Shown here piece after piece: positions 10,978 through 55,364 of a stretch of DNA of 64,000 nucleotides (position 1 is the stretch's first letter; the number at the start of each line of letters is the position of its first letter). Both the position numbers and the translations under genes were made by a program. Origin of the DNA: Candidatus Latescibacterota bacterium (GTDB taxonomy: Bacteria; Latescibacterota; UBA2968; UBA8231); NCBI GenBank assembly GCA_965261395.1, contig OZ253462.1, positions 5,856,001-5,920,000 on the forward strand, in the 5' to 3' direction. The notes under the pieces were generated by a model, which ran no database searches, was not told the DNA's origin, and saw only the letters and a list, made by a program, of their open reading frames with translations.

Positions 10978-13900
10978 CTATTTCAGCAGCAACAGCCGAC
11001 GGACCTGTACTCCTTGAGTGCTAACGAGCCGGGACAGATACACCCCGCTGGCCAGCGATGAACCGCTGTCGCTGCGACCGTCCCAGGCGATCTGGTAGCG
11101 ACCCGCCGCCTGCATGCCTTGGACTAGGGTGCGAACCCGCTGCCCCATGACATTGTAGATAGCCAACTCTACTGGGCTGGCTACCGGCAGCGTATAGACA
11201 AGCTGCGTCTGGGCATTAAACGGGTTGGGATAGTTGGCGTCCAAACCAAAGGTCCGGGGTGCGACTACCGGCTTGGCCGCCGGGCCGGGCACAATCGCCG
11301 TCAGTTCGTTCGACAGGGGCCGTCCGTCTTCGGTGCATATCGCGCCTGCCGCCTCGCAATCAGTCGGCGGCGGCAGGACGATGAGCACCTCTGCGTTGGA
11401 CTCTGGTTCGATGGTGATTTTCCAGCCTAGGTTACTGCCCGCCTGCAAGCGTTGCGCTTTTTTCGCCACGCCGCCGGTCACGTCGAGTGTGGTATCTCGC
11501 AGGGTCTTGAAGCTGATCTCGATTTTCTCGCTGAAGTGCAACTCGAAGGTGAACTCGCTGCCGTCGTGCGCCGCGGGCATCGCCTCAAAGCGCGCCGTCA
11601 GCAGGCCGGGCACAATTGCCGTCAACTCGTTTGACAGGGGCCGTCCGTCTTCGGTGCATACGGCACCGGCTGCCTCGCAATCGTCCGTCGGCGGCAGGAC
11701 GATGAGCACCTCCGCGTCGGAGTCTGGTTCGATGGTGATATTCCAGCCTAGGTTGCTGCCCGCCTGTAAGCGTCGCGCCCCTTTCACCACGCCGCCGGTC
11801 ACGTCGAGCACATCGTCCCGCATGTTCACGAAGCTGATCTCGATTTCTTCACTGAAGTGGATCTCGAAGGTGAACTCGCTGCCGTCGTGCGCCGCGGGTA
11901 GCGCCGCAAAACGCGCCGTCAGCAGGCCGGACCCGGGCACACTCGCCGTGAGCTCGTTCGCCAAGGGCCGTCCGTCTTCGGTGCATACTGCGCCTACTGC
12001 GTCGCAATCGGTTGTCGGCGGCAGGACGATGGATACCGCTGCGTTGGTGGTGTCTGGTTCGATGGTGATCCTCCAGCCTAGGTTGCTGGGCGGCTGCAAA
12101 CGGCGTGCCCTTGTCGCCGTGCCACCGGTCACCTCGAGTACGGTATCGCTCACCGCTAGGGCTCTGCTGATCTTGATTTCCTCGCTGAAGTGCAGCTCGA
12201 AGGTGAACTCGCTGCCGTCGTGCACCGCTGGCATGTCCTCGAAGCGCGCCGTCAAGGATTGTTCGGATGAGTCAGGCTGCTGATCACCGTCGTCTTCAGT
12301 CGCCTCGGATTCTGTACTAGCGGCGACAGCTATTTGTGCCGTGAGTGGGGAGCCGTCGTATTCTGCGATGGCATCTGCGCCGATGATGAAGGTGAGGGTG
12401 GCATCGGTGTCGAAGTTGGTGCCGTCGAATGTAAGTTCGACGGTCACCACCGTATCGCTTACACGATCCACATCAAGACGTCGAACCGTGACCCCGGCGA
12501 TACCCGCTACGGTCACCGCCCCTCTGATTGTGGAACGGGATGACTCGTAAGCCCCGCTGCTGAGCGTCAGGGTGACAACGCTCTCGTGCAGTGTCGCCTC
12601 GGTTAACGGGGAGGCCGTGGAGGCGGTTATAGTTGGGCCCTCACTAGGTTCGTCCGATTGTTCAGCGCCGGGCACAATCGCCACCAGACTGTTCGACAGG
12701 GGTTGTCCGTCTTCGGTGCATACTGCGCCGTCTGCCTCGCAATCGTCCGTCGGCGACAGGATGATGAGCACCTCTGCGTTGGTGGAGTCTGGCTCGATGG
12801 TGATTTTCCAGCCTAGGTTACTGCCCGCCTGCAAGCGCCGTGCACCTGTCACCGTGCCGCCGGTCACGTCGAATACGTCATTCCGCACGGTCGCGAAGCT
12901 GATGTTGATTTCCTCGCTGAAGTGCAGCTCGAACTGGAACTCGCTGCCGTCATGCGACGCCGGCATGCCCTCGAAGCGCGCTGTCAAGCCAAGCGCTTCG
13001 GATTGTTCCGGCTCTTCGGGTTGTTCGGGCTGCTGCACAATGCTCTCTCCAGGGATTTCTATTTGTCCCGTAGCCGCATTGTAAACAGCCTCCTTGATAT
13101 TGGGGGTGCTACTCTCGTCAAAAAAGCGCAGATGGGTTATCCGAGACCCAGCCCAAGAAGAGGAGTAGCTGGAGGTCGTTGTCCCGCACATGGTCTCTGA
13201 GACATAGTTGCTTTGACTCCCCAAGTCCTGTGTCTTGATATACACTTTGCTTGGTCGGGCTGCCTCTGCATTGGCGAAGCTACATCCCTTCAGCGTGCCC
13301 AACACCATAAAGGCCAACGTGCCAACTGCCGAATCATCGGTGAACTGGGTTGGAACGCCCCAAACCGTACCGGTCTTACTCAGCGTCACTTGGGTGTAGC
13401 CCGCTGGGGTAGAGGATTCAAACGCCATCCGGTCAGTTGCCGCGTCCGGCTGCTCCGGCGGTTGGCCGCCGTCCGGCTGCTCTGATTCGATAGTGGCGGT
13501 GACGACTATTTGTGCCGTGAACGGAGATCCGTCGTAGTCTTCTATGGCCCCTGCGCCGACGATGACAGTGAGGGTAGCATCGGTGTCAAAGTCAGTGCCA
13601 TCAAATGTAAGTTCAACAGTCACTACTGTGTCGCTCACACGATCCACATCAATCCTTCTAACCGTGACGCCGTCAATACCCGATACCGTCACCGCATCTC
13701 TGATTCTGGAACGGGATGACTCGTAAGCTCCGCCGCTGAGGGTGAGGGTAACGACGCTCTCGTCCAGCGTCTCCTCAGTCAACGGAGAGGCCGTGGAAAT
13801 ACTGAGCGTCACGTTGACAGGCTCTTCGGATTGTTCGGGCTGCTGCACAATGCTCTCTCCAGGAATTTCTATTTGCCCCGTAGCCGCATTGTACACAGCC

Positions 13901-16900
13901 TCTTTGACATTGGAGGTACTGCTCTCGTCAAAAAAGCGCAGATGGGTTATTCGAGCCCCATCAAAAGAAGAGGAAGCGTTGGAGGTCGTTGTTCCGCACG
14001 CCGTTGCCGAGCCAAAGCTGTTTAGCTGTCCCAAGTCCTGGGTCTTGATATACACTTTGCTTGGTCGATCGGCCTCGGCATTGGCGAAGCTACATCCCTT
14101 CAGTGTTCCCAACACTATGAATGCCAGCGTGCCAACGTCAGAACCACTGGCGTACTGGGTTGGAACGCCCCAAACCGTACCGGTCTTACTCAGCGTCACT
14201 TGGGTGTAGCCTGCTGGGGTAGAGGATTCAAATGCCGTCCGGTCAACCGCCGCGGGTTGTTCTGCTATGTCGGTGACGTTGATGGTGACGTTGATGGTGT
14301 CCGTGAGGTTACCATCGGAGACAGTGATGGCCACCGAATAGGAAGACTTCGTCTCGTAGTCGAGGGCCGCACTGGTTTTCAACTGCCCGGTCGCGCGCTC
14401 AATGTCAAACGAAACCGCATCGGTACCACCGAGAGTGTAGGTGAGCACGTCGTTGTCAGCGTCTGTGGCGGCTATGGCCGTGCCGATGAGTACGCCGTTT
14501 GCGGTATTCTCCGCCACCGTGCGGGTGGTGCTCGTGCCGTCGGTGAACGCGGGTGCCGTATTCGCGGGAGAGCTGATGACTTCCAGCGGCAGGTCGGCGG
14601 ACTTGACGAGAGCATAGCCGAGATGGTTTGCAGGTAGCCCCGGCAATATGCCAATATTCACGGTGACAATAGAGGTCGTGCCGGGCGTGCGGGTTACGGT
14701 GACAACATCGCTTTCCACGCGACCGGCGCGAATCGTGACACTGTTTGCCCCACCGGTGATGGTCCCGTCCGCAACGGTGAGCGGCAAGACGATGTCAAAG
14801 GGTGCACCTGCAGGCACGGTAGCTTTGAACTGTCCCTCTCCAACCTTCTCTAAGGACACGGTAAGAGGCAGGGGGTTAACCGAGTTAATACCTAAGTCGA
14901 GCCCTGTCAGCGTGTTGAGTTTGTCAAAGATCCCGGCTGGCAGCGAACTCAACTGGTTGGCGGCTAGGTAGAGCCTTGTAAGTGCGTTGAGATTATCAAA
15001 GATCCCGGCTGGCAACGAACTCAACTGGTTGGCGCTCAAGTTGAGCGTCGTCAGGGCGTTGAGTTTGTCAAAGATCCCGGCTGGCAGCGAACTCAACTGG
15101 TTGCGGCCTAGGTGGAGTTCTTTCAGGGCGTTGAGTTTGTCAAAGATCCCGGCTGGCAATGAACTCAACTGGTTGCGGGTCAAGTTGAGTGTCGTCAGCG
15201 CCGACAAGCCGTCAAAATCGCCGACTTTGAGCGAGCTGATTGATTTATCAGTGACATTGAGAGATGTAATCACCGCGAGCTGAGCTTGGGTCACCTCGTC
15301 GCAAGTGCTTACGCTCGGCACCGCGGCCACGATCGCGGTTTGCACTTGCGCGGTGCGGTCGCAAATCCCTCCCGTCAAAAGACTGAACATTTCCAGCGGC
15401 AGATCGGCGGATTTGCCAAGGGCATAGCCGCTGTGGTTTGCGGGCAGCCCCGGCAAGGTGCCCATGTCCACGGTGACGGCAGCCGCCGTGCCGGGGGTGC
15501 GGGTCACGGTGAGCGGCTGGCTTTCGAAGCTGCCGGCGGGAATGGTGATCGTGGTTGCGCCGCCGCTGATGCTGCCGTTGGCAACGCTGAGCGGCAGCAC
15601 CATCTCAAACGGCGCACCGGACGGGGCCACCGCCTTGACCTGATCCGCGCCAACTTTCTCTAACGATACGGTAAGCGGCAGAGGATCCACTGAGTTGCCA
15701 TACAAGTAGAGGGTTGTCAGCGCCGACAGCCCGTTAAATAGGCCGTCCGGTAGCGCCGATAACTGGTTGCCGTTCAAGTAGAGCGTGGTCAGCGCCGACA
15801 ACCCGTCAAACAGGCCATCTGGTAGCGTCGATAACTGGTTGCCATACAGGCGGAGTTCCGTCAGGCTAGTCAGGCCCGCGAAATCACCGGCTTGCAGGGC
15901 AGTAATGCCTTGGTCGTTCAGGAACAGACTCGTGACCCCGGAGGACACCTGCGCCTCGGTCACCTCGCCGCAGGTGCTGGGACTCGGGGTCTGTAGCTGT
16001 AATATACCCACGATAGCGTCGCGCACCTGCGGGGTGCGATCGCAGACCGTAGTCTCTGCAGAGACTACGGTGTCGTTGTCGGTGATGGTGACGGTCAGCG
16101 ACGATGGCGAGAGCGTGAGGCCCGACGTCGTCGTGGCCGTGAAGATGACCGTCTCGTCGTCCTCATCCACCGAGTCGTCCACTAGGCTCAGCGTCAACGT
16201 GGCCGTGCCCGACACCGAGCCGGCTGGAATCGTCAACGGAAGCACTGTTACCGAGTAGTCTGCATCGCGCGTGGCCGTGCCCGAGATCGTCAGCCTCACG
16301 TCCGTCGCCGTCGTCAGCGCCGCGCCGTTGAGCGTCCCGGTCACCGTTATCGTCGTCGCGCCCGCGTCTTCTGCCACCTCGGTCGGCGACAACTCAAGCG
16401 TGACCGCCGTACTTTCGTCAACAGCGGTGTTGGTCGTTGTTGCCTCGGCAGTAAAGGTCTCCGACTGGGCAATACCTTGGACACTTACTTGAACCGTGTT
16501 GGTGCCGGCGCTGTTGCCAAGCGTCAGCGTACTCGCCGCTTGGCCGTTGGCATCGGTCGCGGTACTCGTGGCACTCAGCGTGCCGCCGCCTGCGGTGATA
16601 GCAAACGTCACTGGCACCCCCGCAAACGCAGCACTTTCCCCATCCTGCACTTCAACCACAAACGGCTGCGCCAGGGCGGTACTGGGCGTGCCCTGCTGGC
16701 TATCACCCGATATTTTCACCAGCGTCGTCGGTGTGCGGTTGTCAAAGTCTATGTAAACACTTCGCGCTTGTAGAGCTGGAATGTGGGTGTAGATAGACGG
16801 GTAGTCCAACGGATTGCCCTGCACATCAATCTCGGTGTCCGCTCCCAACCCCGTATTAGCAACCAACGGCGAGAGGTCGGATACGGCGTTTTCAGCAAGA

Positions 16901-19900
16901 ATCAACTCTAGCAGATTGGTTAAGCCGGTCACCGCCGATAGATCCGCGATGCTATTGCCACTAAGATCAAGCGATGTCAGGCTGGTTAGGTTCGTCACCG
17001 CGGCGATATCTGAAATGCTGTTGTTGGGGGCATCCAACCATTCCAGCTTGGTTAGGTTCGCTACAGCGGCGATACTGGAGATGGTGTTATCGCCGATTCG
17101 CAGTTCGGTCAGGTTGGCCAATGTTGCTACGGCTGATATATCGGATACTGAATTCTCGCGGAGACCGAGATGGGTCAGTTGGGTCAATCCTGCCACGGCC
17201 GATACATTTGCTATCGAATTTTCACCAAGACGTAAATCGGTCAGGTTGGTCAACCCTGCCACGTGCGATATATCCGTGATGGCGTTGCCCCACAGATACA
17301 GTTTGGTCAGGTTGGTTAATCCCGCCACGACGGCCATATCCGCGATGTTGTTATCCCAAAGCTGTAGTTCGGTCAGATTGGTCGCGGTTTCCAGTCCGGT
17401 CAGATCGCTAATGGCGGCGTCTTGTGCGGACAGGGCTGTCAGTGTTGCCATCTCGGCTGCGGAGATGGGGTCTCCAGATGTTTTGCCGAGGGCGGTTTCA
17501 ATCTTAGCGCGGAGATTGGCGTCGGGGATGGTCAGCGTCACTGCCACCTCACCGATGACTTCTAGCGGCAGGTCGGTAGATTTGACGAGGGCATAGCCGG
17601 AATGGTTTGCAGGCAGCCCCGGCAAGGTGCCAATGTCCACGGTGACCGCCGCGGTTGTGCCGGGGGTGCGCACCACGGTGAGGAGTTGGCTTTCCACACC
17701 GCCGGCGGGTATCGTGATAGTCGTCGCGCCACCGCTGATGTCTCCATTCGCAACGGTGAGCGGTAGCACAAGGTCAAACGGCGCACCGGACGGGGCCACC
17801 GCCTTGACCTGATCCGCGCCAACCTTCTCTAACGACACGGTAAGCGACAGCGGATCCACCGAGTTACCATACAAGTACAGCGTCGCCAGCGACGACAGCC
17901 CGTCAAACAGACCATCGGGCAGCGTCGTCAACTGGTTGCCGTTTAAGTAGAGCATGGTCAGCGCGCCCAACCCGTCAAACAGGCCGGCCGGTAGCGTCGT
18001 CAACTGGTTGTCATACAGGCGCAGTTCCGTCAAGCTGGTGAGATCCTCGAAATCGCCGGCTTGCAGGGTGGTAATGCCCTGACCGTTCAGGAACAGACTC
18101 GTAATATCGGAGGTCAGATGCGCCTTGGTTACCTCGCCGCAGGTGCTTACGCCCGGCACCACGGCCACAATCGCGTCGCGCACTTGCGGGGTGCGGTCGC
18201 AGACCGGGATTAGGCTTTCGTCTAGGTCGGTGACATTGATGGTGACGTTGATGGTGTCGGTGAGGCTGCCATCGGAGACGGTGACGACCACCGAATAGGA
18301 AGACGTTGTCTCGTAGTCGAGTGCCGCACTGGTTTGTACCTGCCCGGTCGTACTATCAATGGCAAACGCAGCCGCATCGGTGCCGCCGAGGGTGTAGGTC
18401 AGCACCTCGTTGTCCGCGTCTGTGGCGGCTATGGCCGCGCCGAGGTTGACACCGGCCACTGTATTCTCCGCAACAGAAAGCGTCGTGCTAACTCCATCGG
18501 TGAACTCTGGGGCGTTGTTTGATGCAACCGCACTCGTTGTGACTTCAATCGTGCCTTGAGAGACTGCGCCGTTTGCAATGATACAATCTACTGCTGCGAC
18601 GCAGGTGTATGTTCCATTATCTGCAGTTACTGCTCTTCCACTTCCGATTGTAAGGCGTGCGGTCTGGAATCCCGTGGGGAGTAGAATGGTATCACCGACA
18701 TTGTATGTGGTAACCTCAGTACCTTCGCCAACAGCGGTGTCGGTCGTGGTCGCCTCGGCGGTAAAGGTCTCCGACTGGGCAATGCCTTGGGCACTCGCGC
18801 GAACCGTGTTAGTGCCGGCGCTGTTGCCAAGCGTTAGCGTACTCTCTGCTTGGCCGTTGGCATCGGTCGCGGTGCTCGTGGCACTAAGAGTGCCGCCAGC
18901 GGTGACGGCAAACGTCACCGGCACGCCCGCAAACGCGGCACTTTCCCCATCCTGCACCTCAATGACAAACGGATCCGGCAAGGCGGTACCGGACGTACCC
19001 TGCTGGCTATCGCCCGATACTTTCGCAAGGGTCGTCGGTGTGCGGTTGTCGAAGTCTATGAAAACACTTCTCGCCTGTAGAGCTGGGATGTGGGTATAGA
19101 TGGACGGGTAGTCCAACAGATTGCCCTGCACATCAATCTCGTTGTCTGCTCCCAACCCCGTATTGGCCACCAACGGCGAGAGGTCGGATACGGCGTTTTC
19201 AGCAAGATACAACTCTAGCAGCTTGGTTAAGCCGGCCACCGCCGATAGATCCGCGATGCTATTGCCACTAAGATCAAGCGAGGTCAGGTTGGTGAGGTTC
19301 GCCACCACGGCGATATCGGAGATGCTGTTGTTGGGCGCATCCAGCCATTCCAGCTTGGTTAGGCTCGCCACCGCGGCGATACTGGAGATGGTGTTATCGC
19401 CGATTCGCAGTTCTGTTAGGTTGGTCAAGCCCGCTACAGCGGCCATATCGGATACCGAATTCTCGCGGAGATCTAAATGGGTCAGGTTGGTCAATCCTGC
19501 CACATGAGATGCATTTGCTATGGAGTTTTCGCCCAGCCGCAGATCGGTCAGGTTGGTCAACCCTGCTACGTGCGATAGATCCGCGATGGCGTTGCCCCAC
19601 AGATACAGTTTGGTCAGGTTGGTTAATTCCGCCACGGCAGCAATATCCGAGATTTCGTTATCCCAAAGCTGTAGTTCGGTCAGATTGGTCGCGGTCTCAA
19701 GGCCGGTCAGATCGCTAATGGAGGCATCTTGTGCGGCAAGGGATGTCAAGGTTGCCATCTCGGCTGGGGAGATGGGGTCTCCGGACGTTTTGCCGAGGGC
19801 GGTTTCAATGTTGGCGCGGAGATTGGCGTCGGGGATGTTTACGGCCGCGGTATTGGGAGTCGTTGCACTGATGATTTCTAATGGCAGGTCGGTGGATTTG

Positions 19901-39576: not shown

Positions 39577-39582
39577 CCATCC

Positions 39583-44723: not shown

Positions 44724-44745
44724 CATAAAAGAGAGAGTTGTCAAC

Positions 44746-44985: not shown

Positions 44986-47900
44986 TTACCGCAGCAGGAT
45001 AAGCTTGCGCGTCAAAACGGTCTCTTCCGTCATCAGCCTGTATAGGTACATGCCGCTGGCCACGGGGCGACCCGCGTCGTCACGACCATTCCAGTGCAGC
45101 CGGTGGTAACCCGCCTGCTGCAGCCCTTGCTGCAAGACCGCCACCCGTTGTCCGGTCAGTGCGAACACTTCCACGCTCGCCGGACTAGGCGCGTGCAAGA
45201 AATAGGCAAGAACCGTCTGGCTGTTGAACGGATTGGGCGCGTTTTGCGCCAACTGCGGGTTGTCGGGCAGAGCCACCCGCTTGCCACCCCCCAAAAAAGC
45301 GTCGAAGAGACTAACCAAGGGCGACTCCTGCCCGGTAGCGGTAAAGGTCCCCGGCTCCAGCCCCTCCACAATGGCCGAAACCGCGTTGGTCCCAGGCTCA
45401 CTGCCCAGCGTCAGTCTGGTAGCAGCGCGGCCGTTGGCATTGGTGGTGGCGGTGGCAGCCGACAGCGTCCCCCCACCAGCGGTGACCGTAAACGACACCA
45501 CCACCCCGGCCATTGCCGTACCCTCTTCATCCGACACTAAAACCACAAACGGCTCGTCCAGTAGTATGCCGGCCGTGCCCTCTTGGCTATCGCCGCAGAC
45601 CTTCGCCAGACTATGGGGCATTGCTTGCTCGGCAGCAGTAGCGGTAAAGGTCACCGGTTCCAGCCCCTCAACCGTGGCCGAAACCGTGTTGGTCCCCGGC
45701 TCGCTGCCCAGCGTCAGCCGAGTTGCGGCTTGGCCGTTGGCATCGGTGGTAGCGGTGGTGGACGACGTAGATGATTCAATAGTACAAGGGTCGGCATCGG
45801 TGGTGGACGACAGCAGCCCGCCGCCAGCGGTCACTGAAAAGGTGACGGTCGCCCCGGCAAGGGGTGAGCTAGCTTGATCCAACACCGAAACGACAAACGG
45901 CGTGGCTAGTTTTGTGCTAGCCGGGCCTTCTTGGCTATCGCCGGAGACCTTGGTCAGACTATGGGGCGTTTGCTCGATGGCCGTAGCGGTAAAAGTCTCA
46001 GGTTCAAGCCCGGCGACGGTGGCCGCAACGGTGTTGGTCCCCGGCTCGCTGCCCAGCGTCAGCGTGCTTCTGGCTTGGCCGCTGGTATTGGTAGTAGCGG
46101 TGGCAGCCGACAGCGTCCCTCCGCCGGCAGTGACCGAAAAGGTGACGACCGCCCCGGCAATCGCCGTGCCATCCTCATCCAGCACCGAAACGACAAATGG
46201 CGTGGCCAATTGCTCGCCGGCCAGGCCCTGTTGATTGTCGCCGGAGAGTTTCCTCAGCGTGTGAGGACGGGACTCCTGTTGCTCATCGCCGGAGGTTTCC
46301 ACCACCGTGTGAGGACGAGACCCCATCCACTCCGATACATCCCACAGTGCGATCATGCCAGGTGCCCCGCCCGGCAAGCCTGACCCGGAGGCGAGCGTGG
46401 CATCGTCGCCAAGAAACACTACCGAACGGACCTCACCCGTGTTCGGAAAAACGACGAGCTTTTGGCGTCTCAATACATCCCACAGTATGACCCTGCCGTC
46501 TTTTGACCCGGAAGCCAGGAGGGTCCCGTCGGGCGAAAACGCTACCGAAGTGACGTTCTTCGTATGCTCCTCTAGGATGCCGATCTGTGCGCGACTCGCA
46601 ACATCCAACAGCCTGACCGTATCATCGGACATCCCCGTTGCCAGGAGGGCACCGTCGGGCGAAAACGCCATCGAACGGACCTTATCCATAGTCAGGCTGC
46701 CGACCTTTGTGCGGCTCGCCACGTCCCAAAGCTCCGCGCCATCACTCGACCCCGTTGCCAAGAGGGCACCGTCAGGCGAAAATGCCACCGAATGGACTGC
46801 ATCTATAGACAGGCTACTGACCTTTGTGCGGCTCGCCACGTCCCAAAGCTCCGCGCCATCACGCGACCCGGAAGCCAAGAGGGCACCGTCGGGAGAAAAC
46901 GCCACCGAACGCACCCAATTCGTATGCCCTTTTAGGCTGCCGACCTTTGTGCGGCTCACCACGTCCCAAAGCAGAATCGTGCCGTCACGAGATCCGGAAG
47001 CCAGAAGGGCACCATTACGCGAAAACGCCATTGCCCAGACCCCATCCGTATGCCCTTCCAAGGTGGCGATTTCTTCTCGGCTCGCCACGTTCCACAGCCT
47101 GACCGTGGTATCTCTTGACTTGTCAGCAGTTCCCGCTCCGGAGGCTAGAATGCCCCCGTCGGGGGAAACCGCCATCGCCCAGACTCCATCCGTATGCCCT
47201 TCCAAGGTGGCAATGTGGTACGGGGAGATCTCTACAAGAACGAACTCCGTCTCGCCCACATCTCCCTCGGTATCAACTACTCTGATCTCAATCGGATGTG
47301 CAATCGGATCGGAGAGACTTGAGACAAAGGAAGAGGGAATGCTGCCGTCATAGTCGAATTCAACGAGGGTATCTCTCTCGCCTGACAACCCACGACACGC
47401 CTTGACTTCGAGAGTATTAATGCCAAATTCCCCCCTCGTGGGAGCGAACAGAAACACTTGGTGAAGCCCTTCCGAATCGCCGACTTTGAGTCGAATGGAG
47501 ACGCTCTCCGAGCCGGCCGGATAGGCGCGCGGCGATATGAGTTCGACGGTCGGTGGCAGTGTCCCATGAATTGGGCTGTCGGGATTGAAATAGGGATGCA
47601 CGGACAAAAATTCGGCAGCGCACGCAGATAACTGATCCGGTGTCCAGCCATACGACATGATGTACGCATCATCGCGGAAATCGTGATGCAAGCCGAAAGC
47701 ATGCCCCAATTCGTGGGCCACGATTATGAAGTCCACACTTTCAGATACGAACGCAAAGCCACCTTTCTTGTTGTACCGTGTTCCGATTCCTCCACCCATG
47801 CTAGCGTCGACGAGATGAAGTAAATGTTCTCTTGGAAATCGAACATCCGAATCTCATCTCTACTATAGAGGGGGTTTTGATAGTAGCTGTCGGGATGTTG

Positions 47901-48290
47901 CCCGTCGACGCGATGCACCAGCGGCTCGCCCTGCGCATCTGTCTCAAAACGGAAGGTTTTATTACCGTAGCCGTGTGCCTGCATCTGCTCGGCATAGAAG
48001 GTCTGAACCTGGCTAATCACCACTTTCATTTCATCAACCATTTCTTGACGATACGGCCGGTCATTGGGCAAAAAGTAGATCATCCGCACCGTGCGCGGCT
48101 CTCCCACGTTGAGGTCCTCCAGCCGCTTGGCCGCAGGTCGGGGGTGACCGCGCCGCCACTGTTCGTAGTCGTCGAAGGCGCAGAAATGCACACTATCGGC
48201 TGGCGGGGACGACGCATGGGCCAGCACCAGCGGCGAGAGAATGAGGCCGATTAACGCGAAAAGAGCGGAATGACGAACTGGAGTTTTCAT
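44986..48290 (-). pseudogene. Frameshifted secreted metzincin + WD40 + 3x Big_1 + FlgD/T9SS-CTD-like protein (ORFs 47724-48290 and 44986-47799)
   Basis: MKTPV head homologous to the giant gene; one missing base near 47812 (ATC TC GTC GAC) joins the two frames; HELGHAFGLHH at 47683-47715; WD repeats; QNAPNPFN tail. Confidence 0.85.
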
Positions 48291-48355
48291 GGGTTCAGCC
48301 TCCTGTAATTTCGATTTGCGTCCATGTCAGTGTCGGCATGGCTCAATCCTCCGTC

Positions 48356-48406
48356 AGATAAATATAAACCCGAAGCGGTCAGGGAATGTCCGTTATTTAA
48401 AAAATT
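48356..48406 (-). promoter_or_regulatory. Conserved promoter/operator block, copy 3
   Basis: CGGTCA-GGGAA-TGTCCG at 48376-48392; minus-strand TATATT 9 bp beyond it. Confidence 0.8.
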
Positions 48407-48441: not shown

Positions 48442-50628
48442 CTAGTCGGCGGCCATCACATAGACCTCTGTGTTGCCATCGCGATTGGACAAGAAGGCGA
48501 GGCGCTGGCCATCTGGAGCCCAAACAGGAGACCAGTCGTCACCGACGTTCTGCGTGAGGTTGGTGGAGTTGGTGCCGTCGGCGTCCATGACATAGACCTC
48601 TGTGTTGCCGTCGCGATTGGACAAGAAGACGAGGCGTTGGCCGTCGGGAGCCCAAACAGGAGCCCACTCACCGCTGAAGTGGTATGTGAGGCTAGTTGGG
48701 TCGGTGCCGTCGGCAGCCATGACATAGACCTCTGTGTTGCCGTCGCGATTGGACTCGAACACAATGCGTTGGCCATCGGAAGACCAAACAGGATTCCCGT
48801 CGATGCCAGCGTCTTGTGTGAGGTTGGTCAGGTCGCTGCCGTCGGCGGCCATGACATAGACTTCCGCGTTGCCGTCGCGATTGGACGTAAACGCGATGTG
48901 TTGACCATCGGGAGACCAAACAGGAGCCCAGTCGTCGCCCGCGCTCTGGGTGAGGTTGGTGGGATCGGTACCGTCGGCGTCCATGACATAGACCTCTGTG
49001 TTGCCATCTCGATTGGACGTGAAGGCGAGGCGTTGGCCGTCGGGAGACCAAACAGGAGCCCAGTCGTCGCCCGTGCTCTGGGTGAGGTTGGTGGGATCGG
49101 TGCCGTCGGCGTCCATGACATAGACCTCTGTGTTGCCGTCGCGCTCAGACGTGAATGCGAGGCGTTGGCCGTCGGGAGACCAAACGATATTCCACCCGTC
49201 GGTGTCGGCGTTCTGGGTGAGGTTAGTTGGGTTGGTGCCGTCGGCGTCCATGACATAGACCTCTGTGTTGCCATCGCGACTGGACGCGAAGGCGAGGCGT
49301 TGACCGTCGGGAGACCAAACAGGAGCCCAGTCGTCACTGGCGTTCTGGGTGAGGTTAGTTGCGATGTTGCTAGCGCTGCTGAGACTCCGCACATCAAGCG
49401 TATAGTCTGTCGTCGATCTGTACGCCTCTATATGGATGTAGTAAGTACCTGAACTGACAGGAACAAGAATTTGGAAATTGAAGCCCGCAGCGGAGTTGCC
49501 GTCCCTAGCCAAGACGTTGCCAGAGCTATCAAAAATGAAGGTGTAGGCACCCATGCTACTCGTCACAGAAGCCGACAAGACGCCCGCAGTGTTCATCTCA
49601 AGGCGAAAATAATCCACATCACCCTCCGATATCGAGCCAACAGTCGAACTCCCCAAAGGCACCTCCGTCGCCTCAGAGAGCGTGTCGCCATGATCATCGC
49701 CGATCAGCGGCAACGTCGGATCGGACGGATTGTCGGTGTAGCGGACGAGGAGCAAGAGATCGGCTAAATCGACCGTGCCATCGTTGTTTATATCGCCGAG
49801 GGAAATGTCGCCGTTGTTGGGAAGAATAATGGAGGAGTCTGCTATAACATATAATAGTACATACAGCACATCCGAGATATCGACTTGCCCATCGTTGTTC
49901 ACATCCCCTAATAACCCGCCCGCAGCCACCTTCATCCGTGGGATACCGCCGTGCTCTTCGATCACAAGGTCCGCCTCGTCAATCCCCATCCGAAAAGCCG
50001 GGTTCACATACGCAACCAAACCCTCGCCCGAGACCGTCAGCCCATAGACCGAGCCATCCGCTGCCACTAAATCCTCGACCGCCGACCGCACCGGCCCCGC
50101 CGGAATCCCCGCCTGCCCATCCACCAACACCATCCGCCGACTCTCCGTCTGATCATTGCTGCTCAGCCGGTAGATATACACCCCTGCGCCCACGGCTCGC
50201 CCCGCTGCATCCGTAGCATCCCATTGCGCCATATGCACCCCTGCCGACCTCACCCCATCCACTAACGTCGCCAGACGCTGACCCAGCAGGTTGAACACTT
50301 CCAGCCGCACATGGCCAGCCACCGGCAGTTGGTAGGGAATGACGGTCGAAGGATTGAACGGATTGGGGTAATTCTGCCCCAGCGCAAAGTCGGTCGGCAG
50401 AGCTGTGCCCCTTGCCCTAGAGAGTGCTCGCAGCGGCAGCGCGAAATGCCCGGTCTCGTCCGTGGTGGTGCCGACGAACCGGCGCAGATCGGTCAAATCA
50501 AACAGCCGCACCTGTGCGCCAATGGCTGGCTGCCCAGACGACAGTCGCACCCGGCCTTCAAGGAGAGATTCTGCGCCGACGCTGACGCTCAGCACCAATC
50601 CGATGAAACTACCGATCAAATACTTCAC
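48442..50628 (-). CDS. Secreted protein: N-terminal FlgD/CTD-like Ig domain, dockerin-like EF-hands, PPC-like domain, TolB/PD40 propeller
   Basis: Signal peptide; QNYPNPFNPST near the N-terminus; GDVNNDGQVDISD and GDINNDGTVDLAD; seven ~132-bp PVWSPDGQRLAF repeats. Confidence 0.88.
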   Translation of the reverse strand: MKYLIGSFIGLVLSVSVGAESLLEGRVRLSSGQPAIGAQVRLFDLTDLRRFVGTTTDETGHFALPLRALSRARGTALPTDFALGQNYPNPFNPSTVIPYQLPVAGHVRLEVFNLLGQRLATLVDGVRSAGVHMAQWDATDAAGRAVGAGVYIYRLSSNDQTESRRMVLVDGQAGIPAGPVRSAVEDLVAADGSVYGLTVSGEGLVAYVNPAFRMGIDEADLVIEEHGGIPRMKVAAGGLLGDVNNDGQVDISDVLYVLLYVIADSSIILPNNGDISLGDINNDGTVDLADLLLLVRYTDNPSDPTLPLIGDDHGDTLSEATEVPLGSSTVGSISEGDVDYFRLEMNTAGVLSASVTSSMGAYTFIFDSSGNVLARDGNSAAGFNFQILVPVSSGTYYIHIEAYRSTTDYTLDVRSLSSASNIATNLTQNASDDWAPVWSPDGQRLAFASSRDGNTEVYVMDADGTNPTNLTQNADTDGWNIVWSPDGQRLAFTSERDGNTEVYVMDADGTDPTNLTQSTGDDWAPVWSPDGQRLAFTSNRDGNTEVYVMDADGTDPTNLTQSAGDDWAPVWSPDGQHIAFTSNRDGNAEVYVMAADGSDLTNLTQDAGIDGNPVWSSDGQRIVFESNRDGNTEVYVMAADGTDPTSLTYHFSGEWAPVWAPDGQRLVFLSNRDGNTEVYVMDADGTNSTNLTQNVGDDWSPVWAPDGQRLAFLSNRDGNTEVYVMAAD

Positions 50629-50701: not shown

Positions 50702-53700
50702 CTACCGCAGCAGCACGAGTTTGCGCGTCAGGATGCCCTCGTCTGTCACCAGCCGGTACAGATAGATGCCGCTGGCTAGGGGGCGACCCACGTCGTCGCG
50801 GCCATTCCAGCGCAGCCGATGGTAGCCGGCCTGCTGGTGTCCCTGGCGCAGGACGGCCACTCGCTGCCCGATCATCGAGAACACCTCGAGGCGCGCCGGT
50901 CCTGGTTCCAACAGGAAGTAGGAGAGGACGGTCTGGCTGTTGAACGGATTGGGCGCGTTTTGCTGCAACTGGGTTTTCTCCGGCAGGCCGATCAACGCCT
51001 GGGCCTTAGCTGCCGGCTGGGACGGCGCCGCCATGTGGTAGGCGTAAATCTTGTCGTCCTCCTCGTCCGCCACCCATAGGGTCATGCCGTCCGCCCAGAG
51101 GCCCGTGGGGCTGTCGTTTCCAGCGGCTTGTAGGGTATTGAAATCGTTGTTGGGGTCTCGGGCCTTGGTGGACAGGTTATAGGCGTAAATCTTGTCGTCC
51201 GTCACGTCCGTCACCCACATGGTCGTGCCGTCCGACCAGAGGCCATAGAAGTAGGTGTTTCCAGCGGCTTGTAGGGTATTGAAATCCTTGGTTGGAACCC
51301 GTACCTTGGCGGCCATGTCGTACGCGTAGATCTTGTCGTCAGAACCGTCCGCTACCCACATGGTGATTCCGTCCGACCAGATGGCTTTGGGGTGGTCGTT
51401 TTCAGCGTCGTCCAAGGTATTGAAATCCTTGGTTGGAACCCGCTCCTTGGTGGCCATGTCGTACGCGTAAATCTTGTCGGTACCCCTTTCGTCATCGTCT
51501 GCGACCCACATGGTCGTTCCGTCGGACCAGATGCCTGTAGGGCGGTCGTTTCCAGCGGCTTGTAGGGTATTGAAATCCTTGGTTGGAACCCGCTCCTTGG
51601 TGGCCATGTCGTACGCGTAAATCTTGGTTCTACCAGAGGTGTCATTGAACCACCCCTCTAGAACCCACATGGTCGTTCCGTCGGACCAGATTCCCACAGG
51701 GGAAGAGTTTCCAGCGGCTTCTAGGGTGTTGAAATCAAACTTTGGGTTCCGGACGTAGGGGACGAGGAAGCCGGCGGTGACGGGTATTTCTACGGTGAGG
51801 GCGGGCCCGTCGTAGTTGGCGATGGCCTGCGCTTGCACCGTGAAGATCAGCGTGCCGTCGGTGGCCATGCCGCCGACGAGATCGCCGATGTACGTCAACC
51901 TGACCGTCACCACCGTGTCGCTCACGCGCCTTATGTCGGAAGAGCTGTCAAACGTTACGCCGAGGATGCCCGACATGGTCACGGCATATTGGATGGCGGA
52001 GAGATCCTGCTGGTAGGAACGGCTCGTTAGGGTCAGCGCCACCACGATGCCGTTCAGCGAGGACTCCCACAGCTGAGACGGGGATGCGACCACCGATTCC
52101 GCCACCGCGGTGACGGGTATTTGTGCGGTGAGCGCCGGCCCGTCGTAGTTGGCGATGGCCTGCGCCCCCACCGTGAAAGTCAGGGTGCCGTCGGTGGTCA
52201 GATCGCCGCTGAACGTCAACTCGACCGTCACCACCGTGTCGCCCACCCGATTTATGTCGGAGCGGTTGACCGTTACCTCGGCGATGCCCGACACGGTCAC
52301 GGCTTCCCGGATGGCGGAGATAGACCGCTCGTAGGGACGGCTCGTTAGGGTCAGCGCCACCACGCTGCCGTTCAGCGAGGACTCTCGTAGCGGAGACGGG
52401 GATGCAACCAGCGATTCCGCCAGTGCGGTGACGGGTATTTGTGCGGTGAAGGCGGGCCCGTCGTAGTTGGCGATGGCCTGCGCCCCCACCGTGAAAGTCA
52501 GGGTGCCGTCGGTGGTCAGATCGCCGCTGAACGTCAACTCGACCGTCACCACCGTGTCGCCCACCCGATTTATGTCGGAGCGGTTGACCGTTACCTCGGC
52601 GATGCCCGACACGGTCACGGCTTCCCGGATGGCGGAGATAGACCGCTCGTACGCTCCACCTGACAGCAGCAGTGCCACCACGCCGCCATCTACCGTCGCC
52701 TCCGTCAACGGGCCCGCCGTGGAGACGATTAGGGTTGGGGTTCCTTCCTCCCCTCCGGGTGCTTCTGGTTGTTGGGGTTGTTCGGGTTGCTGATCCCCGC
52801 TGTCGCCAACCGTCCCGACCGTGGACGATTCGTTGCTGTCGGTGACGTTGATGGTGACGATGATGGTGTCGGTGAGGCTACCATCGGAGACGGTGACAAC
52901 CACCGAATAGGCAGACTTCGTTTCGTAGTCCAGTGCCGCCTTGGTTTTTAACTGACCGGTCGTGGACTCTATGTTGAACGCCGCCGCATCGGTGCCGCGG
53001 AGGGTGTAGGTGAGCACGTCGTGGTCGGCATCGGTGGCGGCGATGGCGGTGCCGATGTTGACGCCGGCGGCCGTATGCTCCGCTATGGTGCGAGTGGTGC
53101 TGGCCCCGTCGGTGAACACCGGCGCGGTGTTCGCGAGAACCTCCTCTAGGTCGGTGACGTTGATCGGGACGATGATGGTGTCGGTGAGCGTTCCATCGGA
53201 GACGGTGACAACCACCGAATAGGCAGACTTCGTCTCGTAGTCCAGTGCCGCCTTGGTTTTTAACTGACCGGTCGTGGACTCTATGTTGAACGCCGCCGCA
53301 TCGGTGCCGCGGAGGGTGTAGGTGAGCACGTCGTGGTCGGCATCGGTGGCGGCGATGGCGGTGCCGATGTTGACGCCGGCGGCCGTATGCTCCGCTATGG
53401 TGCGAGTGGTGCTGGCCCCGTCGGTGAACACCGGCGCGGTGTTCGCGAGAGTACTGATGACTTCCAGCGGCAGGTCGTTGGCTTTGACGAGGGCGTAGCC
53501 GACATGGTTGGTGGGCAGTCTCGGCAAGGTGCCTATATCCACCGTGACCGCCGCCGTCGTGCCAGGGGTGCGCACCACGGTGAGGGGCGCGCTTGCTACG
53601 CTGCCGGCGGGGATCGTGAGGGTGGTTGCGCCGCCGCTGAGGCGGCCGTTGGTGACGTTAATCGGCAGCACGATCTCAAACGGTGCCCCGATGGGTGCCA

Positions 53701-55177
53701 CCGCCTGGACCTGATCCGCGCCAACCTGCTCTAACGAAAGGGTAAGCGGCAGCGGATCTACGGCGTTGCCATATAGGTAGAGCGTGGCCAGCGACGATAG
53801 CCCGTCAAACAGACCATTAGGCAACGAACTCAACTGGTTACCGTTCAAGTAGAGCGTCGTCAGCGACGACAGCCCGTCAAACAGGTCTGCTGGTAGCGTC
53901 GATAACTGGTTGTCATACAGGCGGAGTTCCACCAAGCGGGTCAGGCCCGCGAAGTCGTCGGCTTGGAGGGTTGTAATGCTTTGACCGTTCAGGAACAGAC
54001 TCGTAATGCTGGATGCTAACTGTGTCTGGGGCACGTCGTTACAATCGCTTACACTTGGCACGGCGGCCACGATCGCGTCGCGCACCTGCGGCGTGCGGTC
54101 GCAAAGGGTTATGGTTGGGGTACCCCCCTCCCCCCCGGGTGCTTCCGGTTGTTGGGGTTGTTCGGGTTGCTGATCCCCGCGGTCGCCAACCGTCCCGACC
54201 GTGGACGATAGGACTTCCAGCGGCCGGTCGCTGGCTTTGGCAAGGGCGTAGCCGGCATGGTCTGTGGGTAGCCCCGGCAAGGTGCCAATATCCGCCGTGA
54301 CCGCCGCCGTCGTGCCGGGGGTGCGCACCACGGTGAGGGGCGCGCTTGCCACGCTGCCAGCGGGGATTGTGAGGGTGGTTGCGCCGCCGCTGAGGCGGCC
54401 ATTGGTGACGCTAATCGGCAGCACGATCTCAAACGGTGCCCCGATGGGTGCCACCGCCTTGACCTGATCTGCGCCAACCTGCTCTAACGAAACGGCCAGC
54501 GGCAGCGGGTCAACCGAGTTGCCATCCAAGCGAAGCACGGCCAGCGACGACAGCCCAGCAAACAGGCTGTCAGGAAGGGTTGACAATTGGTTGTCGTCGA
54601 GTTCTAGGTGCGTCAGGTTGGTCAGGTTGCCCAGTTCTTTTGGAATGGTCCCCGTCAACTGATTGTCCGAGAGCACCAGTCGTTCTAGGTGGGTCAGGTT
54701 GCCCAGCTCAGCGGGGATTTCGCCGCTTAACCGGTTCTGATCGAGTTCGAGGTATCTCAGGTTGGCGAGGTGGCCCAACTCGGAGGGGATCTCACCGCTC
54801 AATCGGTTCTGATTGAGTACTAGGTATCTCAGGTGGGCGAGGTTGCCCAGTTCAGCGGGGATCTCGCCACTTAACAGGTTTCTTTCGAGACGCAGCTCAT
54901 ACACCTGGCCGACGTTTTCGGTGGAAACGCCTGCCCACTCGCCGAGGGGCTGGTTGCTGAGCCAGTTTGTCTTGTTCCGCCAACTGGGGCCATTGGTGGC
55001 GTTGTATAGCGCAACCAGTGCGACACTGTCGGAGTTTGCGGACTCGGACGTGAGAGCAGAGGTTGCCATCTGCTCGAACGCATCCCCGAGTTCGACCCCG
55101 TTCTGGGCGCGGCTGTCTTGCGCCAACAGAACAGCGACTAATAAGAAGGCGAGATGGAACAAGCGGTTCTTTTTCAT
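50702..55177 (-). CDS. Secreted LRR / Ig / 2x cadherin-like / beta-propeller protein with FlgD/T9SS-CTD-like tail
   Basis: Signal peptide; plant-type then bacterial LRRs; two near-identical cadherin-like units; five DFNTL..AGN..P.GIWSDGTTMWV repeats; QNAPNPFN tail. Confidence 0.9.
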   Translation of the reverse strand: MKKNRLFHLAFLLVAVLLAQDSRAQNGVELGDAFEQMATSALTSESANSDSVALVALYNATNGPSWRNKTNWLSNQPLGEWAGVSTENVGQVYELRLERNLLSGEIPAELGNLAHLRYLVLNQNRLSGEIPSELGHLANLRYLELDQNRLSGEIPAELGNLTHLERLVLSDNQLTGTIPKELGNLTNLTHLELDDNQLSTLPDSLFAGLSSLAVLRLDGNSVDPLPLAVSLEQVGADQVKAVAPIGAPFEIVLPISVTNGRLSGGATTLTIPAGSVASAPLTVVRTPGTTAAVTADIGTLPGLPTDHAGYALAKASDRPLEVLSSTVGTVGDRGDQQPEQPQQPEAPGGEGGTPTITLCDRTPQVRDAIVAAVPSVSDCNDVPQTQLASSITSLFLNGQSITTLQADDFAGLTRLVELRLYDNQLSTLPADLFDGLSSLTTLYLNGNQLSSLPNGLFDGLSSLATLYLYGNAVDPLPLTLSLEQVGADQVQAVAPIGAPFEIVLPINVTNGRLSGGATTLTIPAGSVASAPLTVVRTPGTTAAVTVDIGTLPRLPTNHVGYALVKANDLPLEVISTLANTAPVFTDGASTTRTIAEHTAAGVNIGTAIAATDADHDVLTYTLRGTDAAAFNIESTTGQLKTKAALDYETKSAYSVVVTVSDGTLTDTIIVPINVTDLEEVLANTAPVFTDGASTTRTIAEHTAAGVNIGTAIAATDADHDVLTYTLRGTDAAAFNIESTTGQLKTKAALDYETKSAYSVVVTVSDGSLTDTIIVTINVTDSNESSTVGTVGDSGDQQPEQPQQPEAPGGEEGTPTLIVSTAGPLTEATVDGGVVALLLSGGAYERSISAIREAVTVSGIAEVTVNRSDINRVGDTVVTVELTFSGDLTTDGTLTFTVGAQAIANYDGPAFTAQIPVTALAESLVASPSPLRESSLNGSVVALTLTSRPYERSISAIREAVTVSGIAEVTVNRSDINRVGDTVVTVELTFSGDLTTDGTLTFTVGAQAIANYDGPALTAQIPVTAVAESVVASPSQLWESSLNGIVVALTLTSRSYQQDLSAIQYAVTMSGILGVTFDSSSDIRRVSDTVVTVRLTYIGDLVGGMATDGTLIFTVQAQAIANYDGPALTVEIPVTAGFLVPYVRNPKFDFNTLEAAGNSSPVGIWSDGTTMWVLEGWFNDTSGRTKIYAYDMATKERVPTKDFNTLQAAGNDRPTGIWSDGTTMWVADDDERGTDKIYAYDMATKERVPTKDFNTLDDAENDHPKAIWSDGITMWVADGSDDKIYAYDMAAKVRVPTKDFNTLQAAGNTYFYGLWSDGTTMWVTDVTDDKIYAYNLSTKARDPNNDFNTLQAAGNDSPTGLWADGMTLWVADEEDDKIYAYHMAAPSQPAAKAQALIGLPEKTQLQQNAPNPFNSQTVLSYFLLEPGPARLEVFSMIGQRVAVLRQGHQQAGYHRLRWNGRDDVGRPLASGIYLYRLVTDEGILTRKLVLLR

Positions 55178-55311
55178 CGGCGATCTCCTTTGGTTAAAGG
55201 ATTTCGACAGTAGCTTCTCCCTCTTGTCTGAGAGAGCTTCCGTGGACTTGAATTCATGGGAATTCGGGGGCCACGATGGTATCGGTTATGGGCATGGCTC
55301 TATCCTACATT

Positions 55312-55364
55312 AGATAAAGATAAACTTTAAGCGGACAGGGAATGTCCGTTGCGTCAAAAAAATT
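55312..55364 (-). promoter_or_regulatory. Conserved promoter/operator block, copy 4 (perfect palindrome)
   Basis: CGGACA-GGGAA-TGTCCG at 55332-55348, followed by the first 15 nt of the WYL gene. Confidence 0.88.

Follow-up and report, generated by a model that had tools for sequence, protein, structure and literature searches.

A 64,000-nt segment of the chromosome of a Candidatus Latescibacterota bacterium (OZ253462.1, positions 5,856,001-5,920,000; the whole stretch is called the window here) carries two paralogous genes for WYL-domain transcription factors, WYL1 and WYL2, set among genes for mosaic and partly giant eukaryote-like proteins with sorting tails of the type IX secretion system (T9SS). 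Four copies of a promoter/operator-like block precede the two regulator genes and two of the cargo genes. The chromosome from which the window comes is complete, at 6.55 Mb and 59% G+C (genome G000, chromosome G000:C1), and the relatives of G000 compared with it are recorded as Candidatus Latescibacterota metagenome-assembled genomes (MAGs). Coordinates are window positions unless they are prefixed with G000:C1.

Read from right to left along the minus strand, the order of elements is a xylose-isomerase-like gene that lies outside the present finding, block 4, a gene for a 1491-amino acid (aa) protein, a gene for a 728-aa protein, block 3 and a split gene with a metzincin head (the head gene). 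Further leftward follow block 2 with WYL2, a convergent plus-strand gene for a Reg_prop regulator, an orphan 3' gene end, a gene of the MLRF family, block 1 with WYL1, and, after a gap of 121 nt, a giant gene.

The WYL1 and WYL2 regulators

WYL1 (38457-39425, minus strand) and WYL2 (43687-44655, minus strand) each code for a 322-aa protein, in which a winged helix-turn-helix (wHTH) is followed by a three-helix bundle (3HB), a WYL domain and a WCX extension. The true start of WYL2 is at 44655, where a conserved MPITDAIHK is preceded by GGAG, and a 361-aa open reading frame (ORF) seen there is an upstream extension. In both proteins HTH_11 and HTH_23 score above the Pfam cut-off at residues 12-59, while the WYL domain (PF13280; cut-off 21.8 bits) scores 44.0 bits in WYL1 and 39.0 in WYL2, and the WCX dimerization extension (PF25583; cut-off 23.9 bits) 74 and 77 bits respectively. 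In a structure model, with a predicted local distance difference test score (pLDDT) of 70, residues 29-36 and 40-52 form helices and residues 58-67 a hairpin behind them.

The two proteins are 91% identical, and their DNA is 92% identical over 1,039 nt (38461-39496 versus 43688-44726). Homology between the copies, and with the orthologues of other genomes, forms a sharply bounded 1.04-kb unit, which begins some 70 nt ahead of the start codon and ends with the stop codon. Synonymous divergence between the paralogues (dS) is 0.18, indicating that the duplication is not very recent; the initial annotation had called them near-identical, a description that this level of divergence does not bear out. 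Both genes are intact. The ratio of non-synonymous to synonymous divergence (dN/dS) is 0.25 between the paralogues, 0.13-0.14 against the related genome G020 and 0.13-0.27 overall across the paralogue and orthologue comparisons, so that purifying selection acts on both genes.

Among solved structures, a profile search with these proteins matched DriD and PafBC/PafC chains only (E-values 1e-11 to 6e-5, with DriD at 1e-11), and Foldseek ranked DriD (E 5e-15) and PafBC ahead of CapW and BrxR (about 1e-8). Neither CapW nor BrxR was matched by WYL1 or WYL2 in sequence or profile searches. In an alignment to DriD of about 20% identity, CYV at 189-191 falls on the NYL of DriD, and four of its six conserved contacts with single-stranded DNA (ssDNA; Y168, R176, R178, Y192, R204 and R207) are identical (Y, R, Y and R), with a lysine at the position of R207 and the equivalent of R178 displaced by one position. 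The equivalent of DriD Y240 is lost, and that of R288 is a leucine, a variant that the DriD authors also note among homologues. WYL1 also resembles the CRISPR-associated family TIGR03985, though weakly and below the cut-off.

The promoter/operator block

The four copies of the block in the window lie at 39405-39494 (block 1, core 39459-39480) before WYL1, at 44635-44721 (block 2, core 44689-44710) before WYL2, at 48335-48406 (block 3, core 48373-48394) before the head gene, from which it is separated by a 45-nt leader, and at 55275-55364 (block 4, core 55329-55350), where it is followed by fossil WYL start codons and then by the 1491-aa gene. All are direct repeats on the minus strand. A search with the 22-mer core, allowing up to 3 mismatches, recovered exactly these four matches in the window and none in 100 shuffles, so that the four copies of one block recognized earlier are upheld. 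The block is not confined to the window, since an 18-nt core with at most 1 mismatch has 13 sites in G000, while the reversed control has none in any of the 31 genomes of the genus comparison set (6 with this WYL gene and 25 without).

Each block has four parts: A/T tracts lead into the palindrome CGGACA-N5-TGTCCG, which a linker of constant length (9 nt) separates from TATCTT. Across the 13 copies the mean pairwise identity is 0.91 in the 22-nt core AACGGACATTCCCTG(T/A)CCGCTT, 0.80 in TATCTTTATC and 0.70 in the T-run, but only 0.47 in a 6-nt linker and 0.24-0.37 in the flanks. The confinement of conservation to three boxes, with drifted linker and flanks, points to constraint rather than recent copying. 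If TATCTT, which resembles a -10 box, is indeed the -10 element, the palindrome would span approximately -38 to -22 and would thus occupy the place of the -35 element. No TTGACA-like hexamer lies 16-18 nt upstream of TATCTT, and the 9-nt linker is constant. In most copies (e.g. 39495-39515), as well as in the orthologous promoters, the palindrome is preceded by an A-run of 6-7 nt and, after 4-8 nt, a T-run; this pair, which we take to be UP-like by reference to the E. coli consensus, resembles either an UP element or DNA-bending phased A-tracts.

Several other readings of the block were discarded. Sigma-54, extracytoplasmic function (ECF) sigma factor and Bacteroidota -33/-7 promoters were dropped by eye, as their spacings do not fit. 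A mobile element or shufflon was rejected because the copies are direct repeats, each oriented to its gene, and no recombinase was found; recombinase or reverse-transcriptase domains, of the kind expected of a shufflon, an invertible promoter or a diversity-generating retroelement (DGR), were absent among the window ORFs scanned, with no search aimed at inverted repeats made.

Covariation of the palindrome with the regulator

In all 16 loci of WYL orthologues that were read, a T-run, a palindrome, TATnTT, GGAG and ATG follow one another in this order, with the palindrome 40-60 nt before the start. CGGACA-N5-TGTCCG, or a variant of it in one half-site, is present at 12 of the 16: ten with an intact orthologue, one with a truncated orthologue, and one with an 82-aa WYL fragment (in G043). 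The recognition helix of the ten intact orthologues and the truncated one reads VS(Q/E)RTARRY. Two genomes with the CGGACA-type site, G029 and G026, belong to other families and have WYL proteins of only 55-56% identity; their half-sites are the same while the spacer letters differ freely, and in G029 the palindrome occurs just once in the genome, at the promoter of the WYL gene itself. The four most distant loci (46-51% identity) have instead a TGTCGCA-type site together with a recognition helix of the form HR(S/T)TxYRD. Thus, the switch of site type from CGGACA to TGTCGCA coincides exactly with the change of the recognition helix. Given its position and this covariation, the most economical reading of the palindrome is that it is the predicted operator of the WYL protein itself, and the proposal made earlier that the locus is WYL-regulated can accordingly be regarded as a well-founded prediction from sequence.

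Targets of the block in the genome and spread of the promoter

Two of the 13 sites in G000 precede the WYL genes, ten precede ORFs with signal-like starts (judged by eye only, here and throughout), one has no evident gene, and none of the 13 lies before a DNA repair gene. A scan for the motif before NPFN-tailed versus repair genes had been suggested initially, and its outcome agrees with what was hoped for there; a repair-gene regulon is rejected. The ten signal-like targets begin about 40-340 nt downstream and run in the same direction, and each of the 12 copies with a gene is oriented towards that gene. For at least 7 of the 13 sites, the downstream gene or operon includes a sorting-tail domain. 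Besides WYL1, WYL2, the 1491-aa gene and the head gene in the window, the targets comprise two further head-family genes, one of which codes for an intact 803-aa protein of metzincin, Big_1 and tail; two genes of the form 'MKAANV...EGRVRL', one truncated and one of 968 aa; genes for a leucine-rich repeat (LRR) lipoprotein and for a TonB-dependent receptor; a signal-bearing ORF of 192 aa with a He_PIG/Calx-beta/tail protein of 1243 aa behind it; and a DUF5683 'MLRF' protein followed by a collagen-repeat protein. The site without an evident gene within 240 nt downstream, which has one mismatch, is at G000:C1 6176866, about 321 kb to the right of the window; the nearest candidate there is a 100-codon ORF without signal features.

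Several target copies retain remnants of the beginning of the WYL frame. Block 4 is followed by 15 bases identical to the WYL start, with the same fossil at the syntenic block of G020, and about 42 nt of the frame survive at 79% identity after the copies at 0.80 and 4.01 Mb. The 45-nt leader common to three block-bearing head-family copies (48290-48335 in the window; G000:C1 1889050 and 6279820) appears to be a more eroded WYL start. In two of these copies the leader holds a 14-codon mini-ORF overlapping the ribosome-binding site, and in the third the start codon is lost. The leader has the look of a decayed remnant of WYL more than of a working leader peptide. The retention of the beginning of the WYL frame indicates that these targets acquired a WYL promoter, and the unrelated leaders imply that this happened at least five separate times. 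Within the genus, the block is found in all 6 genomes with the WYL gene as opposed to 5 of the 25 without it, and the highest counts are those of G000 (13) and G020 (6), where WYL sits in the cargo island.

It may be asked whether the copies are simply scars from a 1.04-kb WYL cassette that repeatedly entered and left a decaying gene array, in which case there would be no working regulon but largely a field of pseudogenes. The abrupt end of homology at either boundary of the 1.04-kb unit, the fossil WYL codons behind several blocks, the frameshifts in the giant and head genes (see below), the truncated targets at two other sites and a WYL pseudogene with three stops in G020 are all consistent with such scars. 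Scars are harder to reconcile with conservation that is restricted to three short boxes between linkers and flanks drifted to background, with the retention of copies at orthologous sites across species, with the orientation of 12 out of 12 copies towards their gene, with purifying selection on both WYL genes, and with the intact state of the 1491-, 728-, 803-, 841- and 968-aa targets. We therefore consider this explanation very unlikely.

Cargo genes and the dynamics of the island

The giant gene, which is preceded by WYL1, spans two minus-strand ORFs. The upstream part (25142-38335, in an ORF of 4414 codons at 25142-38386) has a signal-like start of the MKTPV type, a metzincin head and, by Pfam, LRR/BspA-LRR, fn3, PKD, Big_1 and cadherin repeats; in the downstream part (10978-25185, 4735 codons), repeats of the LRR, cadherin and Big_1 kinds are joined by another metzincin domain in the interior and by a terminal T9SS type A tail. 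Together they constitute a single gene of about 9,100 codons with dozens of LRR units, apart from one frameshift near 25,150-25,190, where a 72-nt LRR unit is 5 nt short; it is because of this break that the upstream ORF has no sorting tail. The internal head copy (20806-21582, minus strand) lacks the signal part and is fused in frame inside the giant ORF. It is 67-74% identical by blastn to the head at 47356-48107, has the HELGHAFDLRHDF motif in its translation, and matches Reprolysin_5 and Metallopep at residues 1226-1354.

The head gene is similarly split, into an upstream piece (47724-48290, minus strand, 188 codons) with an MKTPV signal-like start and the first half of the metzincin head, and a downstream piece (44986-47799, minus strand, 937 codons) with the second half, a WD40 propeller, Big_1 and a T9SS tail; comparison with an intact paralogue by tblastn places the frame switch within 47,756-47,798. 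In translation, the heads display the zinc site HELGHAFGLQHDF (HExxHxxGxxH), followed by AYIMGYG or AYIMSYG as the Met-turn, and score 31.0 and 27.6 bits against Reprolysin_5 (cut-off 27). We take this motif to be of the metzincin type and the proteins to be predicted proteases.

The LRR-cadherin protein of 1491 aa (50702-55177, minus strand) is intact and ends in a T9SS sorting tail. The 728-aa protein (48442-50628, minus strand), whose gene is probably co-transcribed with that of the 1491-aa protein, combines a signal-like start with CarboxypepD_reg, a sorting-type domain, dockerin and a PD40 propeller; its orthologue in G020 is 84% identical and lies directly behind a block there. Its sorting-type domain is unusual in being N-terminal (TIGR04183, 59.3 bits at residues 87-167, after the signal-like start), and the protein ends in PD40 without a tail; the G020 orthologue begins and ends alike.

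At the C-termini, TIGR04183 (cut-off 23) is matched in all three proteins tested, with 37.5 bits in the last 139 aa of the giant protein, 41.4 in the 937-aa piece and 39.8 in the 1491-aa protein. The NPFN tail likened initially to a C-terminal domain is thus a T9SS type A sorting domain. The secretion machinery is represented in G000 by SprA_N (78 bits in a 2164-aa frame) and the PorU sortase (NF033707, 618 bits against a cut-off of 420), while GldM_1st had no match in this genome. As FlgD_ig-type tails number at least 150 genome-wide, the cargo is of an ordinary T9SS type, of which the block marks only a small subset.

The mosaic build of the cargo that had been read from the letters, with MKTPV-metzincin heads and exchangeable LRR, WD40, cadherin, Big and propeller middles, is borne out by Pfam and blastn; the middles detected are LRR_8, LRR_5, Cadherin, Big_1, WD40 and PD40. 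The giants and the 1491-aa gene have in common super-repeats of 2-4 kb with 80-90% identity. These super-repeats, the shared modules and the second head fused in frame suggest unequal crossing-over. The claimed conservation of a 3' flank holds in part: about 25 nt after the stop are common to the 937- and 1491-aa genes and partly to a paralogue elsewhere, but the giant gene lacks them. The two giant cargo ORFs are one gene, the second ORF being the frameshifted continuation of the first. Orphan gene ends at junctions do occur: the 172 nt at 40837-41008 (minus strand) are 95% identical to 55491-55662, the 3' end of the xylose-isomerase-like TIM-barrel gene (55491-56417; Pfam AP_endonuc_2), and mark a duplication junction, to which the fossil WYL starts can be added.

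Comparison with G020, a sister species, shows the same chromosomal site, with right and left flanks 92% and 88% identical, to hold about 12 kb of cargo versus about 45 kb here. The G020 island consists of a propeller gene behind a fossil-bearing block, a block with WYL, a block with a 145-aa signal-like ORF and a 1245-aa gene, a block with an MLRF gene, and the WYL pseudogene with its three stops; it is devoid of the 1491-aa gene, the head gene, the Reg_prop regulator and the giant gene. Genes have therefore been inserted or lost behind fixed promoters, and this comparison, the shared modules and the fossil fragments support the recombination-shuffled character of the locus. The two frameshifts may be real or assembly errors. 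The four sequencing runs compared are short assembled contigs that break at repeats, and they neither confirm nor refute the frameshifts or the continuity of the giant gene. One run with another host label (X6) has the joints 38395 to 43690 (with 31 other letters between), 55205 to 55651 and 45756 to 48191; since little sequence flanks each joint and relatives are a frequent source of such joints, they are a hint of strain variants only.

Two other genes lie between the WYL copies. The MLRF-family protein (39583-40737, minus strand, 384 aa) has a signal-like start and a barrel-like C-terminal half; it has no Pfam match, and this copy has no block upstream, while paralogues in G000 and in G020 do carry the block. 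The one-component-type regulator with Reg_prop, Y_Y_Y and HTH_8 domains (41134-43608, plus strand; Pfam) is convergent with WYL2. Since it has no counterpart in the G020 island, an insertion of a second regulator, unrelated to the WYL copies that flank it, may account for its presence. Its score against the T9SS protein PorZ is 70 bits, below the cut-off of 260.

The left border of the island (1-7784) is a cluster of genes for a Ser/Thr kinase, a PP2C phosphatase, FHA, MotA/ExbB-like, VWA and trypsin-FHA proteins, which is kept at 88% identity in G020 and looks like a signaling or secretion-related module. Three genes at 6753-10935 combine collagen triple-helix repeats with LRR or low-density lipoprotein (LDL)-receptor YWTD propeller repeats and thus represent further eukaryote-like proteins; the sorting-tail family is absent among their Pfam hits.

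Linkage of the WYL lineage to cas genes

In 11 of 14 orthologous loci, cas genes of types I-B, I-C and I-E lie downstream of WYL. The other three comprise one truncated WYL with no cas gene in 6 kb and two loci with only 1.5 kb of flank. The most complete example is in G012, where the orthologue (77%) is followed by Cas6b, the large subunit, Cas7, Cas5, Cas3, Cas1 and Cas4. The orthologue of G004 is followed by Cas3 and that of G029 by Cas3 and Cse1; in G040, G035, G026, one further MAG and G043 (with its WYL fragment), Cas5d, Cas7, Cas6b or Cas3 are found downstream, and in G013, G041 and G034 tblastn reveals Cas6b-like ORFs. Metagenomic relatives agree with this picture. Eighty loci (35-59% identity) were kept of 532 relatives, 53 of them with at least 900 nt downstream, and 49 of these yielded 62 ORFs; 32 of the 62 contain the Cas3 C-terminal domain and five more Cas5d, Cas6 or DevR, while no family of secreted proteins is among the 25 commonest families downstream of the metagenomic WYL loci. 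An enrichment of WYL proteins near cas genes was reportedly described by Makarova et al. in 2014.

By contrast, no cas gene adjoins WYL in the window or in G020. In G000, tblastn matches to Cas1, Cas3 and Cas4 lie near 0.31, 2.77 and 2.97 Mb, far from both WYL genes and without a block. Given the cas linkage elsewhere, the cargo-island setting shared only by G000 and G020 is the exception for this WYL family. The cas island of G012, G013 and G004 is absent from G000, where its flanks are contiguous at about G000:C1 2,112,718-2,112,789; the WYL gene with a type I-B cas island, which is about 15 kb in G012 and reduced to remnants in G004 and G013, is a presence/absence polymorphism within the genus.

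A model for the regulon and its alternatives

In light of the above-described connections, it is probable that the block-bearing genes form a WYL-controlled regulon, whichever the sign of control. As the best explanation, which we put forward tentatively, we propose that a WYL regulator of the cas lineage was rewired as an activator of a secreted-protein regulon with fast turnover through the copying of its promoter to the targets. WYL1 and WYL2 would be dimeric wHTH-WYL-WCX factors whose lineage usually stands at the head of type I cas operons, each binding the palindrome CGGACA-N5-TGTCCG at the place of the -35 element, 9 nt upstream of TATCTT and downstream of the A/T tracts. This promoter, sometimes together with the first 5-15 WYL codons, would have been copied before about ten other genes, mostly for T9SS cargo of exchangeable parts, so that the block-bearing genes might be controlled together with the regulator itself. 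Activation would ensue when the WYL domain binds single-stranded nucleic acid from DNA damage or phage replication. WYL1 may be co-transcribed with the giant gene, and the cargo array could grow and decay by unequal crossing-over, gene fusion and frameshifts. The parts, the copies with their pattern of conservation, the tie of operator to regulator across genomes and the cas linkage of the lineage are observed, and in this scheme we infer the binding, the sign of control, the ligand and the co-transcription of WYL1 with the giant gene. An ssDNA-responsive activator is favored because DriD and PafBC are the nearest structural relatives, the promoter layout is DriD-like (provided that TATCTT is the -10 box) and most ssDNA contacts are kept. 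The nucleic-acid signal suggested in the initial annotation thereby gains indirect backing, from the cas linkage of the lineage as well as from these relatives and contacts, though the signal itself is presumed by analogy.

Several observations weigh against this model. The covariation of helix and operator reflects a single evolutionary split and is hence suggestive rather than statistical, the structure model is mediocre (pLDDT 70), and the DriD alignment has only about 20% identity. A scan with the sigma-70 consensus gave no more promoter matches than shuffles, and nothing at the blocks. Both cargo genes nearest to the WYL genes are frameshifted and other targets look interrupted, so that some members of the 'regulon' may no longer function. 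No block precedes the giant gene itself, and its co-transcription with WYL1 is assumed from the 121-nt gap; a terminator scan likewise gave no more matches than shuffles, and there is no clear terminator between the two. Further, 5 of the 25 WYL-less genomes of the genus keep 1-3 blocks (three in G022) before intact signal-bearing genes, with palindromes that are nearly intact (0-2 changed letters per site), and two of them, G011 and G021, have a block but no WYL-domain gene of any kind. The promoter thus evidently persists, and probably works, without the regulator. These orphan blocks fit a repressor, or a promoter that is WYL-independent or basally active, better than an obligate activator.

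The block could, on the one hand, be a promoter for RNA polymerase or another common factor, which the WYL genes merely use, leaving the cargo outside WYL control. The orphan blocks of G011, G021 and G022 are what such a promoter would predict, but it leaves unexplained why the palindrome travels with WYL orthologues into other families (with a single site in G029), why the site type switches together with the recognition helix, and why several target copies carry WYL start codons and hence derive from a WYL promoter; we regard it as improbable. On the other hand, the regulon could be the same but with the WYL proteins as repressors that sit on the palindrome, in the -35/spacer region, and are released by a ligand, de-repressing cargo and regulator together. 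This would accommodate the orphan blocks before intact genes in WYL-less genomes, and the A/T tracts with a good -10 box could give basal activity without an activator. There are also precedents: BrxR binds inverted repeats with the same 5-bp spacing and represses (PMC9122601), CapW is an ssDNA-sensing repressor (PMC11662680), and the cas-linked sll7009 of Synechocystis is a negative regulator of a type I-D system (PMC4012209), the last of these, the one experimentally tested cas-linked WYL regulator that we came across, being a further point against an activator. However, CapW and BrxR are unmatched by sequence or profile and rank below DriD and PafBC by fold, there is no recognizable -35 element at the right distance, and an operator fixed 9 nt from the -10 box is the layout of a DriD-activated promoter. 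Repression by WYL therefore appears to us a serious contender but, taken by itself, an unlikely one.

Returning to the model of a rewired activator, its broadest extension would be an exaptation, in which a nucleic-acid sensor that activates cas operons is reused in host-associated Latescibacterota, such that phage or DNA damage remodels the secreted, host-facing repertoire. We view this extension as speculative and rather unlikely. Were it true, an immune-type alarm would be wired directly to symbiosis factors, with the cargo behind the promoters swapped over evolutionary time, and the targets would be outer-membrane proteins, adhesin-like giants of the LRR/cadherin kind and proteases secreted by the T9SS. 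Should ssDNA be the signal, what the symbiont displays to its host would be tied to the genotoxic stress or phage pressure that it meets there.

To our knowledge, next to nothing is known of how the eukaryote-like proteins of animal-associated bacteria are regulated, and the organisms are uncultured. The locus offers a concrete and testable handle on this question, since only a small protein, a 17-bp site and 13 promoters are involved. That a defense-island regulator and its promoter are detachable from cas genes and reusable, as seen here, bears on the birth of regulons, and DNA repair and immunity would no longer be the only outputs known for WYL factors like DriD and PafBC.

Comparison with known systems

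The closest solved relative is DriD of Caulobacter crescentus (PDB 8tp8, 9pfq), which has the same wHTH-3HB-WYL-WCX build and a comparable length (327 versus 322 aa). According to the DriD reports, a pseudo-palindromic site overlaps the place of a missing -35 element at a fixed distance from the -10 box, and binding of ssDNA in the WYL domain leads to contacts with RNA polymerase and activation (PMC13004042, PMC9186387); the layout predicted here would match this if TATCTT is the -10 box. Differences include the low identity, the operator (ATACGAC-N7-GTCGTAT in DriD versus CGGACA-N5-TGTCCG here) and the targets, which for DriD are DNA-damage genes (didA, bapE, recJ and dnaG), unlike any of the 13 sites. 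PafBC of actinobacteria (PDB 6sj9, 9fnd), the second-best solved match, shares the WYL-WCX architecture and is an ssDNA-triggered factor acting by sigma adaptation, whose promoters depend on it in place of a -35 element (PMC11804915). It is, however, a heterodimer or fusion of two WYL proteins and governs a DNA-damage regulon, whereas here a single 322-aa protein is present as two paralogues.

With the cas-linked regulators typified by sll7009, compared by description, WYL1 and WYL2 have in common that their orthologues lie directly upstream of type I cas genes; what sets G000 and G020 apart is that no cas gene adjoins. BrxR and CapW are likewise members of the broad wHTH-WYL-WCX family, and each regulates its own promoter, with a 5-bp spacer in the case of BrxR (PMC9122601) and ssDNA sensing in that of CapW (PMC11662680), but they are shorter (about 285-290 aa) and are known to control only defense genes (BREX, CBASS and other islands). 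The nearest parallel in output is MbpR of Lactiplantibacillus plantarum, again compared by description, which represses mucin-binding surface proteins (PMC11880434). Its publication counts against the novelty of our model, in that an adhesin output of a WYL factor is already on record, and it renders out of date the initial view that a surface-protein output had not been described for such factors. MbpR differs in responding to cyclic di-GMP, in binding inside coding sequences, in its Gram-positive host, and in having no known cas ancestry or promoter copying. Eukaryote-like repeat proteins were also already known from sponge-associated Latescibacterota (PMC12993501), although a dedicated regulator, shared promoter blocks, metzincin heads and T9SS tails are not mentioned in the part of that source available to us.

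WYL regulators, palindromic autoregulation, cas linkage and ssDNA sensing are thus all known. A literature search on WYL proteins with sponge symbionts or type IX secretion gave, among the papers listed, nothing that links WYL factors to T9SS cargo or to sponge-symbiont proteins. What appears to be new is the combination: a DriD-like WYL regulator of a cas-linked family, detached from cas genes and lodged in an island of T9SS cargo, whose predicted operator-promoter has spread to about a dozen genes for secreted proteins.

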